Source: Candidatus Thorarchaeota archaeon (lineage in GTDB: Archaea > Asgardarchaeota > Thorarchaeia > Thorarchaeales > Thorarchaeaceae). From it: a stretch of DNA of 43,016 nt. A program made the translations under genes and the position numbers. The DNA lies in contig JAEORO010000011.1 in assembly GCA_016840855.1 (NCBI GenBank), positions 1-43,016 of the forward strand. The letters are read 5' to 3'. Positions 34,701-40,215 of this stretch are shown here, one piece after another. The number at the start of each line of letters is the position of its first letter. Positions within the stretch are counted from its first letter, which is position 1. The notes under the pieces were generated by a model that ran no database searches, was not told where the DNA came from, and saw only the letters and a list, made by a program, of their open reading frames with translations.

Positions 34701-35618
34701 AATTTTAGCCCTTTCACGTGAAGCAATATCAGCTAACACCATTGCAATACCAATCAATATTACCATGAATCCGATGATAGTAATTGGTCCCGGTATCTGA
34801 AGGAAGATCAATGCAGCTAAAATAGCAGCCCCTATTGGTTCTCCAAGTACTGCTGACGAAACAACATATGCTGGCACCTTTGTCAACAGGTAGTTATTGA
34901 CAGAATGTCCAAGTACTGTTGGGAATATTGCTAGTGCAATGAAGATTACTACTTCTTTCGGTTCAAACACGAGTATGTTCAAATCAAACATGACGCATAT
35001 TGGTACTGTGAATAGCGCGGCTATAAAATAGATGATTGTGGTGTAAACCGTAATTGGCATATCTTTGGCAAATCTTCGACCTCCGATAAAATATAGAGCC
35101 AGAAACACAGCACCTGAAAGAGCAAGAAGGTCTCCACCCAATGCAAGAACTCCACTACCTCCAAAGTCCCCCCAAGCGAGAAATACTGCACCAAATAGAG
35201 CAATCACTATTCCAACCCATGATCTTCTTCGCAAAGCTTCACCCAGAAATATTGTAGATAAAATTGCTGTGAAAATTGGAGATGAGTCAACTAGGACCAC
35301 ACTTGCAGCAACTGTTGTCATGGAGAGAGATTGAAACCAAGTGCAAAAATGAAGAGACAATGTAATCCCAATTGCGATTAACCAATAATAATTCTCTTTG
35401 GTGACAGACTGTCTTAATGTTTTGAAATCACCTCTTGCGGCTCCTATCGAAGCCATGAATAAAGCTCCATACATAGTTCTCCAAAAGACTTTCACAAAGG
35501 CATGAGATGAACTGAAGAGAATAAGGATACTCGCACTTGAAACCATCGTGACTGATAGAATTAGCAACGGAATGATTTGCCGTCTGCTGCTGGATGGATC
35601 AATAAGGGACTCAGCCAT
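34671..35618 (-). CDS. DMT/EamA family transporter
   Basis: About 10 TM helices, SSPIF...FLGE, GDLLAL, LGEPI; 30-nt convergent overlap with rtcB. Confidence 0.88.
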   Translation of the reverse strand: MAESLIDPSSSRRQIIPLLILSVTMVSSASILILFSSSHAFVKVFWRTMYGALFMASIGAARGDFKTLRQSVTKENYYWLIAIGITLSLHFCTWFQSLSMTTVAASVVLVDSSPIFTAILSTIFLGEALRRRSWVGIVIALFGAVFLAWGDFGGSGVLALGGDLLALSGAVFLALYFIGGRRFAKDMPITVYTTIIYFIAALFTVPICVMFDLNILVFEPKEVVIFIALAIFPTVLGHSVNNYLLTKVPAYVVSSAVLGEPIGAAILAALIFLQIPGPITIIGFMVILIGIAMVLADIASRERAKISTFNDTNGS

Positions 35619-36574: not shown

Positions 36575-38350
36575 CTAGTCTTGCTTTTTGTCATCTTCCA
36601 TTGTGTCAAGTAATCTTTCAAGTTCAGCGAGGGTTTCACCATTCAGTGGAAGAACTTTATCTTCTTCCTCTTCAGCCACATCCTTCGATGCAGTCCCAGT
36701 TCCACCAACTGAACGGTCCAAAGGACCCAAGATAGTTTCAAGCTCTTCAAGCGATTCAGCATCAATATCCTCTCTAGCTAGAGGCTCGTCATTAATTGGA
36801 ATAGCTTCATCACTCCCAATAGCCTGAAGTGCTGTGTCAATCTCTTCATGTGATGCTTGTTCTATTTCTGTTGCTATGATATCATCAAAGTCATCTGCTT
36901 CAAGGGCTTCAAAGATAATGTCTTTTGCCATCTTCATTGCGTCGGTGTTCTTTTCAACAGCCAGTTCAGGAACATAATCTTCAATAGACAAATCAACTGT
37001 TTCAGGTTCAGATTCCATCGGTGAGGATTCAGGTTCAATTGATACCATTATTTCTTCTGCATATTCAGGTTCAACCAAGACTTCTTCTTTAGGTTCTGTG
37101 GAGATTTCAGGTTCAGGTATGAAATCAGCTTCTATTTGGATATCTACGTTTCCTGGAACCTCAGCAGATTCAGTTGTTGGTATTTCAAACGACTCCGAGC
37201 TGTCAATCTGTGTATCGACTTCTAGCATTTCTACAGGTGATTCAACAACTTCTCCAAGAATCTCTTCTTCTTCTTCTTCAATAATCTCATATTCGTCGAG
37301 ATTCTCAATCACATGGCCCTCTTCATCGACAAATACCTCTTCGATGATTTCCACTGTTTCGTATTCCTCTTCCTCAACCTCTCCTTCTTCGCTAGCGATG
37401 GTGGCCTCTTCAATTTCAACCACTTCATCTCCAACTCCAGCTATTGCCTCCTCTGTAGCCACATCAGTGAATTTCAGTAGCTCCGATGCAGGTAGGTCTG
37501 GAAGAGCGACCCCAACATATTGGGCTGCTGCAGTCATTAGGATTCGTAGCATCTCATCTCGACGGTCCTTATCAATGGCAACCATTGGAAAGGTGGGAAT
37601 ACCTAGTATCTTTTGAACAACTTCAGGTTTCATTGCATTTGGCTTATCCTGCTTATTTGCCATAGCAAATACTGGAACCTTCGGAGCATCTCTTTTGATT
37701 AGCTTAAGGATATCCTTGCTAATAATCACATTTCTCAGTGTTGAATCGCAAACTAAGAAAATGACATCAGCTCCATGGAAATAAAATCGCCATAAGGTTC
37801 GAAAGCGTTCCTGACCAGCAAAATCCCATAGAACAAGTGAGTAGTTACCAAATCGTATGTTTTCAACTGTTTCAAGATTCAAAGCTATCGTTGGAACATA
37901 TTGGAGAGGTGGAGTATCTCCTAGAAGTAGGTGTAAGGTAGTTGTTTTTCCAACACCACCTTCTCCCACAAGTGCAATCTTAAGTCGAGTAGTGATGGAT
38001 GGTTCTATTAGTGCAGTGTATTTGTTGATTGCACCCTCAATACCTTCCTTTTTGAAATATGCTCTAAGTGCTTTCAATGCCACATCGAGTTTTTCAAAAA
38101 TACTCGCTTCATCCTCACCTTTGTCAGTCACAAAGACAAGAACAGAGTCTTCAATCCAATCTTTGCCAAGAAACTTGTGATCTCCAATTATTAATGGTAG
38201 TTCTGAAACTTGACCATGTTCTGTCCTTAACTCCTCTCTAGTAGAGATGAACTCATATAACGCCTCTTCTTTCACTTCGACTGGCCAATATTGAGTTCTG
38301 GCTATTATTTGCCGGGTGGAAATGCGGACAAGGAAGGTATTGTGAATCAC
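36575..38350 (-). CDS. Longin-like domain plus Arf-like small GTPase plus long acidic tail
   Basis: GEGGVGKTT, PTIALNLETV, WDFAGQERFRTLWRFYF, NKQD; GTG 38350 behind GGTGAT; C-terminal half is E/D-rich. Confidence 0.85.
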   Translation of the reverse strand: MIHNTFLVRISTRQIIARTQYWPVEVKEEALYEFISTREELRTEHGQVSELPLIIGDHKFLGKDWIEDSVLVFVTDKGEDEASIFEKLDVALKALRAYFKKEGIEGAINKYTALIEPSITTRLKIALVGEGGVGKTTTLHLLLGDTPPLQYVPTIALNLETVENIRFGNYSLVLWDFAGQERFRTLWRFYFHGADVIFLVCDSTLRNVIISKDILKLIKRDAPKVPVFAMANKQDKPNAMKPEVVQKILGIPTFPMVAIDKDRRDEMLRILMTAAAQYVGVALPDLPASELLKFTDVATEEAIAGVGDEVVEIEEATIASEEGEVEEEEYETVEIIEEVFVDEEGHVIENLDEYEIIEEEEEEILGEVVESPVEMLEVDTQIDSSESFEIPTTESAEVPGNVDIQIEADFIPEPEISTEPKEEVLVEPEYAEEIMVSIEPESSPMESEPETVDLSIEDYVPELAVEKNTDAMKMAKDIIFEALEADDFDDIIATEIEQASHEEIDTALQAIGSDEAIPINDEPLAREDIDAESLEELETILGPLDRSVGGTGTASKDVAEEEEDKVLPLNGETLAELERLLDTMEDDKKQD

Positions 38351-38489
38351 TTCAGTATCACCAAGTTCTATCAAACCTAGGGGATGTTTGCTGAGTCCTT
38401 TTTGGGATTAAGATAATCCTTTAGGTATAGATTAAGCTGTGCTGTGTGTATATTTTGATATTCTGTGTATCTATTGGAGAGGATTAAAG

Positions 38490-38722
38490 GAAAAATGTTG
38501 GAGCGGGGGTCCGCCAAGGCGAACCTTCCGCATCCGTGGAGCTCTTCCTAACAGGATGCATGGAAAAATCAAATTACATGCGCAAGACTTGCCCAAGAAG
38601 GGCAAATAGGGACCTAGAACTCACTTTGGGACCGTGTTTGCTGCGAGTTCCTTGTTTCTTTCGAAACATGACGGGGGAAGTCCATGCAACCCTGTCATGA
38701 AGATTCACCAGCCCGGAGGGCA
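38490..38722 (-). ncRNA. Candidate ~230-nt multi-stem ncRNA (unassigned)
   Basis: At least six hairpins, a C-GAAA-G tetraloop, an 8-bp long-range pairing, a terminal hairpin plus U-tract; GC-rich island in an AT-rich gap with no credible ORF. Confidence 0.6.
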
Positions 38723-38912
38723 AAATACCATATGAAGCTTTCTAGGTTTTGAAAAACGAAATTAGATTCGATTTTCACTGAAATTATCGCAAAAATCTAC
38801 AGATGTCATCTTAGGATATCGCACAGGTAGTAATTGAGATATTCCACCACAATAGTACATTGTATACACACTAAGAAACCACTATTTGAAATGGGATAAT
38901 AGGCGCTTTCAT

Positions 38913-40052
38913 TTATCGAGGGAAGTTATCCCTAAGTAAACGCAGATGATGATGGACCATCTCCATCTGTTTAGGATCATCAGGAGTCTTCTCAAGATCA
39001 GTAACTAGAGTTTGTAGGAAATACTCCGGGAAGAAGAGTCTGACGCGAATATCATTTAATAAGAACAACCATTTGTCATACTCTCCAGAAGCACCTTTCC
39101 GTCTCTTCTCAGATATTATCCTGAATTTCTTAAGGGTCTGAATGGCAGACTTCAATTCCTTAGGTGGGATGGCCAAAGTTGCTTCTAGTTCTGAAATGTT
39201 GACCGGCCTTCTTCTTAGCTCACTAAGTGTGTCATAGCAGTCTGGATCAGCTAGCACCTGGGCTACAGACACAGTGTCCTCGGGAGTCTTTTGCCATTCA
39301 GTCAGGAACTCTAAGACCTCAGATTTGTATTCAGCAGCAAGCTCAGGATCCAGAACACTACTAGCTGATTCCATAGCTAATAGTGGAGGAGCTCGAAAAA
39401 CCTCAAGGTCTTTAATCATGAAGACGCATGTTCTACCAATCTCGTCAACCCACTCGGTTTTCACAAGACCTAGCTCCTCAAAAGGAGCAATGACCGAATC
39501 AACACTTACACTTGGTAATCCAGTGACCATCTTGAGCCATTCTTCAAGTTCTTCCTTAGAGATACCTCCTTTCCAGAGTTTGGGGAAAACAGCTCGTGAA
39601 ACCTCATCTGAGAATAGCCGAGCAAGACGTGACTCATCAGTCATTCCTGCTAGCCGGATGATTCTGCGATAAGTATTATCGAGTTCTGTCTGCAGTTCAG
39701 CATCTGTCATAGCAACTACTGCATTTGTAAGAGGGGTTACCACTGAAGTGATTGCAGCTTCGTATGTCTTTGGATCCTCTGATGGGGTGAGGAGTAACGA
39801 TACACAGTACTGCTCCTCTTCCCGAACGACTCCAGTATAGTATGAAGCTACGCCATACTCTTCGCCTCCAATCCTAACACTTAGTGATGAGAATCCAGCA
39901 GTAGCATCTCCCATGGCATGTGATGTGAAGATACGCATGATCTCAGTGTTTAGATCTTCTCTGTAATAGTCTGCAAAATCCGCAGGAACCTTTGCCTTTA
40001 AGACAGCCCCTATCTTTGAGTCCCAATCTATAAGTAGCATCGCGACTGGCAT
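38913..40052 (-). CDS. uDENN/NPRL2-like longin protein with C-terminal winged-helix-like repeats
   Basis: N-terminal LIDWDSKIGAVLKAKVP longin-like strand pattern; two wHTH-like segments (PFEELGLV, QTLKKFRII); ATG 40052 behind GGAG. Confidence 0.6.
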   Translation of the reverse strand: MPVAMLLIDWDSKIGAVLKAKVPADFADYYREDLNTEIMRIFTSHAMGDATAGFSSLSVRIGGEEYGVASYYTGVVREEEQYCVSLLLTPSEDPKTYEAAITSVVTPLTNAVVAMTDAELQTELDNTYRRIIRLAGMTDESRLARLFSDEVSRAVFPKLWKGGISKEELEEWLKMVTGLPSVSVDSVIAPFEELGLVKTEWVDEIGRTCVFMIKDLEVFRAPPLLAMESASSVLDPELAAEYKSEVLEFLTEWQKTPEDTVSVAQVLADPDCYDTLSELRRRPVNISELEATLAIPPKELKSAIQTLKKFRIISEKRRKGASGEYDKWLFLLNDIRVRLFFPEYFLQTLVTDLEKTPDDPKQMEMVHHHLRLLRDNFPR

Positions 40053-40215
40053 TTTACTTCTCTCCAAGTCCCTAGAGCTAAGCGAGTGTAAAGTTGAATT
40101 AACTAACGTTGCAGGGCGCCAGCCTAAAAAACCTTGTCTTATTTGGGCTCGACTATAAGAAATATCGAACTGTTCAGCGCTTTTTAGATAGGTTGTTTAT
40201 AATTCAAAAAAACCT

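Follow-up and report, generated by a model that had tools for sequence, protein, structure and literature searches.

Between two protein genes of a Candidatus Thorarchaeota archaeon lies a gap that raises two questions: does it hold the gene of a structured RNA and, if so, what kind of RNA would that be? The window that we analyzed is a stretch of 43,016 nucleotides (assembly GCA_016840855.1, contig JAEORO010000011.1, positions 1 to 43,016), and a sequence-only reading of it had proposed an unassigned, highly structured RNA in this gap. The element proved real and folds better than shuffled sequences. A GC content of 0.46–0.54 sets the section at about 38450–38750 apart from its flanks (0.30–0.39), and a stretch of 261 nt reaches a minimum free energy (MFE) of −90.0 kcal/mol on the minus strand (z of −3.5 versus dinucleotide shuffles) and −89.0 kcal/mol on the plus strand (z of −3.4). 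ARAGORN called no tRNA at the element. The features of the locus are collected in Table 1.

Table 1. Features of the RNA locus, in window positions, listed from the upstream gene to the downstream gene.
Feature	Positions	Strand	Basis or remark
384-aa ORF	38913–40067	minus	Without a Pfam family; upstream of the RNA
Gap with the RNA	38375–38912	minus	Intergenic, between the 384-aa ORF and the 599-aa GTPase ORF
BRE/TATA-like putative promoter box CUAGAAAG-CUUCAUAUG (RNA strand)	38729–38745	minus	TATA-like part at 38737–38729
Non-coding RNA, predicted transcript of ~215 nt	38491–38709	minus	Covariance model match; ends inferred
P1, 5′ strand UCUUC-A-UGACAGGGU-U-GCAUGGA	38681–38703	minus	Pairs with 38564–38543 in the MFE fold
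Single-stranded junction CUUCCCCCGUC, invariant	38670–38680	minus	CCCCGUC in 28/28 sequences of alignment A3
GUUUC-GAAA-GAAAC hairpin, lineage-specific insertion	38654–38667	minus	5/28 distinct sequences (L001–L005)
P3 hairpin GGAACUCGC/GUGAGUUCU	38616–38651	minus	Covaries, also on alignment A7
Junction AGGUCCCUA, second GGUCCC motif	38607–38615	minus	In other genera (GCAU)UGGUCCCC
P4, variable hairpin AUUUGCCC-UUCUU-GGGCAAGU	38587–38607	minus	5/5 modelled pairs compensatory
Invariant CUUGCGCAU, then U-rich single-stranded tract	38565–38586	minus	Class-wide comparison
P1, 3′ strand UCCAUGC-AUCCUGUUA-G-GAAGA	38543–38564	minus	MFE fold, covariation, duplex energy
Linker GCUCCAC and 3′-terminal hairpin (38535–38500)	38500–38542	minus	14 modelled pairs
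AACA and U5 tract, likely archaeal termination signal	38491–38499	minus	Sequence read
Second conserved block, possible promoter/operator of the GTPase gene, outside the RNA	38424–38474	minus	Kept through the genus
Candidate GTPase start region	38348–38362	minus	GGTGAT, then GTG 38350
599-aa ORF with Arf/Roc/Ras-type GTPase domain	36575–38374	minus	Downstream of the RNA

No known RNA family accounts for the element. Searched with Rfam 15 at gathering thresholds across the whole window, it matched none; at E ≤ 10 over positions 38300–39000, nine chance-level matches appeared (E of 2.3–9, far under the cut-offs), none covering the element and two of them, on the plus strand, merely touching its 5′ margin. 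Homologous loci that have diverged, 17 in number and 58.7 kb in total, had no Rfam 15 match at E ≤ 1 either. The same genome carries an SRP RNA (C216:1871–2179; 87.7 bits, E of 4e-20, RF01857) and an RNase P RNA (C183:32492–32832; 163.9 bits, RF00373) elsewhere, and local alignment of the element to these two was no better than alignment to shuffles, in line with the earlier failure to match SRP and RNase P signatures here. Full-text literature searches turned up no report of such a structured RNA in Thorarchaeota. The novelty proposed for the element therefore stands after the Rfam scan, and as far as sequence comparison can tell, this is a new family, with its novelty at the level of the RNA family. 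We recognize the family by a P1-closed junction with CCCCGUC, a P3 loop with GGUCCC, a second GGUCCC, CUUGCGCA, a U-tract and the GGAUGCGG hairpin, all of which the window carries.

The minus strand, already proposed from the letters, is the right one: among the modelled pairs, 105 G-U stand against 17 A-C, an excess that fits the minus strand only, and the orientation of a promoter-like box and of the U-tract agrees. Small ORFs of 44–49 aa overlap the element but are not conserved, with strand and frame shifting among close relatives, and indels of 1, 2, 4 and 17 nt among these relatives break the frame. Judged from its aligned relatives, the element is thus minus-strand and non-coding.

Covariance model R1, built from seven seed sequences (203 positions, 48 pairs), matches the window at 38489–38709 with 193.8 bits; R2, a core model of wider scope (31 sequences, 130 positions), matches it with 52.7 bits. 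The predicted RNA measures ~215 nt here and 190–260 nt in relatives; in the window, we infer its 5′ end from the position of the putative promoter and its 3′ end from that of the U-tract. The BRE/TATA-like box lies ~28 nt upstream of the RNA in the window; it is kept through the genus and occurs in distant genera as CTAGRAAGSTTCWTATG. Measured with a regular expression that matched 15 of 20 sequences, it precedes the model start by 24–28 nt in RNAs that lack a 5′ hairpin and by 45–63 nt where such a hairpin is present. The box resembles the CTTAAA-type boxes found ~30–35 nt upstream of the same genome's tRNA genes and would act as the promoter of the RNA. A first GCCC/GGGC stem of the sequence-only reading (38721–38711) lies past the TATA-like box but ahead of the predicted start and is kept only among the closest relatives. 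T-rich runs follow the 3′ hairpin in most members of the genus, and the tract is missing from some GC-richer genera.

The fold is backed by extensive covariation. In the R1 alignment of 28 distinct sequences, 94.9% of 1284 pair cells are standard, compared with 76.0% after shuffling, and 37 of the 48 pairs are compensatory (0/500 shuffles as high; slid partners 31–50%); the fitting of these alignments to the structure raises the proportion of paired cells artificially, and the sequences are related, so that shuffle controls overstate significance. The same reading applies to a set of 39 sequences from many genera, with 92.7% of 1681 cells standard versus 71.3% shuffled and 43 of 48 pairs compensatory (slid partners 35–51%). 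Because the alignments are model-fitted, three model-free checks were added. On the sequence-only MAFFT alignment A7, P3 has 91.0% of cells paired and 6/9 pairs compensatory (slid partners 16–51%). The duplex energy of P1 averages −29.9 kcal/mol for a sequence's own 5′ and 3′ strands and −18.1 kcal/mol for non-cognate strands from distant sequences, with 41 of 45 cognate duplexes among the best 10%. Finally, separate MFE folds of divergent homologues gave the same architecture in 18 of 20 cases, as read by eye from the dot-brackets. A consensus from RNAalifold on a plain MAFFT alignment was poor and partly wrong, because indels misalign the helices, and covariance-model alignments were used in its place. 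A lack of conservation or covariation would have spoken against the structured RNA proposed earlier; both are present, and comparison establishes the predicted fold as well as the strand, range and non-coding nature of the RNA.

In its 5′ section, the RNA consists of an optional 5′ hairpin, the long closing helix P1, a junction with the invariant CCCCGUC and hairpin P3; the 3′ section adds the second GGUCCC, the variable P4, CUUGCGCA, a U-rich tract, a linker and the 3′ hairpin. All 20 P1 pairs are compensatory among the 39 sequences. The inner part of this helix had been described as an 8-bp pseudoknot between 38681–38688 and 38557–38564: the pairing is real and covaries (GCAUGG/CCAUGC here; GGCGG/CCGCC, GGCACGAA/UUCGUGCC, GCGCAC/GUGCGC and GCACGG/CCGUGC elsewhere), but the topology is not that of a pseudoknot. 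The local hairpin CAUGACAGGG/CCCCGUCAUG that had been drawn around it fails in the alignment (61.7% of cells paired, 0/7 pairs compensatory), and its 5′ strand pairs with AUCCUGUUA, so that the supposed pseudoknot is the inner part of a nested P1. UCCU/AGGA likewise loses its standing as a stem of its own and belongs to the P1 3′ strand, and the hairpin with the GAAA loop turns out to be an insertion restricted to one lineage.

Three hairpins of the sequence-only reading are present and covary: the GAACUCGC/GUGAGUUC stem, which is P3, the GCCC/GGGC-cored hairpin, which is P4, and the terminal hairpin. The large loop of P3 carries an invariant ACACGGUCCCA (38637–38627), seen across homologues as ACGGUCCC or UUGGUCCC. 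P4 varies in length and sequence and is absent at two loci (L031 and L037). The 3′ hairpin is 95.8–98.8% paired in the 39 sequences, with 10 of its 14 modelled pairs compensatory; it forms at the same place in almost all homologues inspected, its 5′ strand GGAUGCGG is conserved in sequence, and the hairpin sequence is kept class-wide. Two likenesses considered for this hairpin were dropped, a tRNA-like minihelix for want of a conserved CCA and a group II intron domain V for want of an AGC triad, the defining features of the two.

Some 45 sequence-invariant unpaired nucleotides lie inside P1, namely CCCCGUC, the two GGUCCC, CUUGCGCAU and the U-rich tract. The junction core CCCGU is kept class-wide, UUGCGCA is nearly invariant over the same range and is followed by a U-run of at least three in 34 of 36 distinct tails, and the two GGUCCC, correctly noted earlier as lying in unpaired segments, are conserved across the class. 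Tertiary pairings between invariant motifs (CCGU/ACGG and CUUCC/GGAAG, picked by eye) showed no covariation and were dropped. Added hairpins are peripheral only: they occur at the 5′ end, behind CCCCGUC, within P4, on the tip of the 3′ hairpin, or in the stretch that separates P1 from the 3′ hairpin. Among those read at loci L078, L091, L128, L076, L088, L094 and L130 are an extra GGUC-N5-GACC hairpin between P1 and the 3′ hairpin in some genera and, in many, a 5′ hairpin together with a GGC-UUCG-GCC extension at the 3′-hairpin tip.

Syntenic regions collected from relatives, a step suggested with the original proposal, contain homologues in which the element is conserved. Within the genus, a DNA search found it in 16 of 24 other genomes, and beyond the genus in 0 of 16. 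When each species was represented by a single genome, an exact-pattern scan gave 26 loci, titled Candidatus Thorarchaeota (21), Promethearchaeota (2) or uncultured archaeon (3); 16 of them duplicate earlier loci, which results in 28 distinct sequences. Model R1 matches 68 of 87 genomes of the Thorarchaeia class, from 11 of 17 genera, once per genome except in G000 and G018, which have two matches each and both show signs of mixed strains. Most of the genera that R1 missed have a divergent copy in the DNA that immediately follows the orthologous 384-aa gene: run without filters, R1 reached E values of 3e-5 to 0.02 at 7 of 12 loci in these genera, and CCCGU with two GGUCCC was found by eye at L129, L132 and L137, with a more degenerate version at L133. 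The core model R2 matches 23 of 26 further genomes of the window's family (f1) and 0 of 124 genomes across 26 other Asgard families, so that the RNA was not found outside family f1 in the genomes searched. By these searches, the RNA is confined to one family of Thorarchaeota, where it sits at the same chromosomal spot in one copy. The earlier suggestion of a new Asgard RNA class thus holds for a new class, given the silence of Rfam 15 together with conservation and covariation, but "Asgard" is too broad for an RNA of a single family.

The second copy in G000, the window's own assembly, (C103:177–378, locus L018/L050) is 88% identical, lacks the GAAA hairpin insertion, and lies on a 1.9-kb contig with its own copy of the 384-aa gene, 98% identical. 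As the bin is 6.3% contaminated, a second strain is a more likely source than a paralogue; the second copy in G018 presents the same picture. A scan of metagenome contigs with a loose pattern listed at least 120 stretches, with no transcript-like contigs among those listed, and of 80 loci with DNA, one (L229) matched R2, a true homologue among what were otherwise chance hits. In the sister family's one genome (G025), no RNA copy was detected between the two protein genes: there, a longin orthologue (65% identity) adjoins a roadblock-GTPase gene across an AT-rich spacer of ~280 nt (L135, G025:C34:11900–14100). This would mean that the window's family gained the RNA by insertion in its ancestor, or that the sister family lost or moved it.

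What kind of RNA is this? We lean, at somewhat better than even chances, towards an RNA of a new family that is structured, transcribed independently and active in trans, probably as the RNA component of a ribonucleoprotein (RNP). Transcription would start from the RNA's own BRE/TATA-type promoter and end at the 3′ hairpin and U-tract. The long P1 joins the 5′ end to the segment just before the 3′ hairpin and encloses the junction with P3 and P4; P1 and the junction may keep the invariant single-stranded motifs in set positions, as sites for proteins or other RNA, the 3′ hairpin may shield the 3′ end or bind a further protein, and variable hairpins would be tolerated at the surface. The RNA would act in trans and not in cis on the neighboring genes. 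In a target search, complements of the invariant motifs were not enriched in the genome. Presence once per genome in the whole family, with a core as conserved as that of housekeeping RNAs, suggests a basic cellular function. The same two neighbors in nearly all genomes could point to a functional or cis link rather than to free action in trans.

Such a link is the substance of the next reading, to which we give a clearly smaller though still appreciable chance: the RNA works with its neighbors, either as RNA subunit or regulator of a GTPase switch or as a product processed from the 3′ region of the upstream gene. At 24 of 24 divergent loci, the 384-aa gene lies immediately upstream on the same strand, and at 21 the GTPase gene comes downstream. 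The 384-aa protein is 81–94% identical across genera at these loci, compared with 56–68% for the adjacent thymidylate kinase; orthologues occur in 85 of 85 genomes of the RNA-bearing family, and relatives of 30–37% identity, several copies per genome, are found phylum-wide. Sequence searches with this protein gave a weak ArsR/SmtB helix-turn-helix alone, and Foldseek found no match of its AlphaFold model (pLDDT of 88.1) to the PDB at E ≤ 0.001. In a further structural comparison, the N-terminal domain of the model has a longin fold, with a Lokiarchaeota longin domain as the best match (Z of 13.7, rmsd of 2.6 over 132 residues) and GATOR1 chains at Z of 12–12.7; it resembles the longin domains of the GATOR1 and FLCN GTPase regulators (Z of 12–13.7). 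The middle part is modelled as helical, and residues 259–345 as an ArsR-type winged helix (Z of ~10.7), a fold able to bind nucleic acid. With a longin domain and a winged helix in this model, and an Arf/Roc-type GTPase domain in the other neighbor, the earlier label of a longin/GTPase system for the two genes was apt. In a published description of Asgard GTPase, roadblock and longin proteins, including roadblock-GTPase fusions, the passages on these proteins do not contain the word "RNA" (PMC10933270).

Against this coupling stands the fact that gene order is inherited within one family, which makes synteny alone weak evidence. Furthermore, the sister family has both protein genes adjacent with no detectable RNA there, so the protein pair works without an RNA at that place; and a promoter-like box of its own precedes the RNA, which one genus places 800 nt from the upstream 384-aa gene. 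A specific form of the coupling, in which the RNA would be the subunit of an Asgard-lineage RNP acting on a switch of longin/winged-helix protein and roadblock-Arf-type GTPase, with the GGUCCC pair and the U-tract as protein sites, strikes us as improbable; if true, an RNA would here assist a small-GTPase module, in principle as SRP RNA does with the SRP GTPases.

Equally doubtful, in our judgment, is a trans-acting catalytic or ligand-binding RNA, that is, a ribozyme or free aptamer and not a protein scaffold. Its attraction is that the invariant unpaired nucleotides cluster at a multi-helix junction while the peripheral helices vary freely, an arrangement typical of catalytic cores and binding pockets. 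However, none of the ribozyme and riboswitch families in Rfam 15 matches, hand inspection found no covarying tertiary pairing between the invariant motifs, and nothing points to a substrate.

The sequence-only reading had offered a large regulatory leader as an alternative to a new RNA class, and this fares slightly worse still: a cis-acting leader, in which a riboswitch-like aptamer with a terminator hairpin and U-tract controls the GTPase gene, has little probability. At 14 of the 24 divergent loci, the GTPase gene does lie on the same strand 90–260 nt downstream, and the order of promoter, invariant unpaired junction, hairpin with U-tract and same-strand gene recalls the terminating riboswitches of bacteria. 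Riboswitches and other cis-acting leaders, however, always share a transcript with the gene that they regulate and lie in its 5′ UTR. Here, the GTPase gene is ~1.1 kb away at 7 of the 24 loci and outside the retrieved DNA at 3, an opposite-strand 257-aa ORF follows the RNA at locus L032, and the occurrence of opposite-strand genes in this place in some genera argues that the RNA is not a leader. The RNA also has a promoter-like box of its own, a second conserved promoter-like block stands between the U-tract and the GTPase start, the supposed terminator hairpin is conserved in sequence class-wide, unlike typical expression platforms, and no known riboswitch family in Rfam matches.

The second block contains a TATA-like AAUAUACACAC and, ~20 nt further on, CUUAAUCU, as seen in the genus comparison; the two together may form a promoter and its operator. 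This block of ~50 nt is bordered by an inverted repeat, ATAGAT...ATCTAT, with the TATA-like motif. The GTPase ORF itself probably starts at the GTG, 7 nt after GGTGAT, rather than at TTG 38374, the start given by the ORF tool.

Even less probable than a leader is a far-diverged representative of a known class (SRP, RNase P/MRP, C/D, H/ACA, Y RNA or snRNA). Loose similarities to several of these classes lie in the size, the helix between 5′ and 3′ parts, and a U-rich strand near a terminal hairpin, but Rfam is empty at the thresholds given above for the element and for the 17 loci, and SRP and RNase P RNAs are encoded elsewhere in the genome. Like archaeal SRP RNA, the element is archaeal and a few hundred nucleotides long, with a long helix joining its 5′ and 3′ parts; the SRP system has an RNA working with GTPases, and the present RNA is flanked by a longin gene on one side and the gene of an Arf-type GTPase on the other. 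In contrast, RF01857, whose model is built on helices 2–6 and 8 with conserved loops, gives no hit at E ≤ 10 in the element, and the genome's SRP RNA is found at C216. The likeness to archaeal RNase P RNA consists of multiple helices, conserved unpaired regions and lineage-specific peripheral helices; unlike that RNA, which is characterized by a P4 pseudoknot and conserved regions CR-I to CR-V, the element has no RF00373 hit and a similarity not above shuffles, with the genome's copy at C183.

In Sm-class RNPs, a single-stranded U-rich Sm site is bound by an Sm/Lsm ring, and the element shares with Sm-class snRNAs and Sm/Lsm-bound RNAs a conserved U-rich single strand near helices in the 3′ part and a terminal hairpin; it differs in that its U tract leads into a P1 strand and the linker, not straight to the terminal hairpin, and in matching no snRNA family. 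Box C/D sRNAs, of ~50–70 nt, have a K-turn and boxes C (RUGAUGA) and D (CUGA) near their ends. The element is ~215 nt long, no pair of C and D boxes was spotted in its conserved core, and the C/D hits are chance-level (E of 2.3–9) and lie outside it or on the other strand. H/ACA sRNAs consist of one or more hairpins with a pseudouridylation pocket and a K-turn or K-loop, and a conserved ACA comes after them. In the window, AACA follows the last hairpin, but the ACA is not kept in other genera, and the internal loop of the 3′ hairpin (2 nt on the 5′ side, 1–2 nt on the 3′ side) is too small for a pocket. The earlier failure to match C/D and H/ACA signatures agrees with these results. Y RNAs are characterized by a bulged conserved stem bound by Ro and by a Ro (TROVE) gene in the genome that encodes them; the Y RNA models of Rfam had no match in the element (E ≤ 10) or in the 17 loci (E ≤ 1).

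That the element is no RNA at all, being instead a conserved DNA element or small protein-coding gene, is already largely refuted and has hardly any probability left, for although short ORFs overlap it and the two strands are nearly equal in folding, pairing at the RNA level is maintained by compensatory changes, G-U outnumbers A-C in a way that suits a single strand, and the ORFs are unconserved in frame and strand, with frame-breaking indels.

The closest parallel to an independently transcribed, trans-acting RNA of this kind is offered by raiA, OLE, GOLLD and ROOL, orphan structured RNAs specific to bacterial lineages that were found by comparative genomics. Like them, the present RNA has a stand-alone gene of at least ~200 nt, its pairs covary strongly, many of its unpaired nucleotides are invariant while its peripheral hairpins vary, it is restricted to one lineage, and its function cannot be deduced from sequence; unlike them, it is archaeal (Thorarchaeota) and fixed beside longin-domain and small-GTPase genes, and it has no Rfam 15 match to any of them. 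Asgard archaea are the archaeal group closest to eukaryotes, and their structured non-coding RNAs are almost unexplored. Here, such an RNA lies between two eukaryote-like genes of trafficking or signaling, a longin and an Arf-type GTPase gene. If it works with these neighbors, the three would make up an RNA-protein machine of a new kind; if it is not coupled to them, metatranscriptomics, pull-downs and structure probing still have a defined target in it.

Two observations concern other RNA genes. The 87.7 bits of the SRP RNA at C216:1871–2179 (locus L020) are below the Rfam gathering cut-off of 96.5, and standard annotation would therefore miss the SRP RNA in this lineage. ARAGORN called 24 tRNA genes in the whole bin and placed a gene for selenocysteine tRNA (tRNA-SeC) at positions 35074–35164 of contig C72 in G000.
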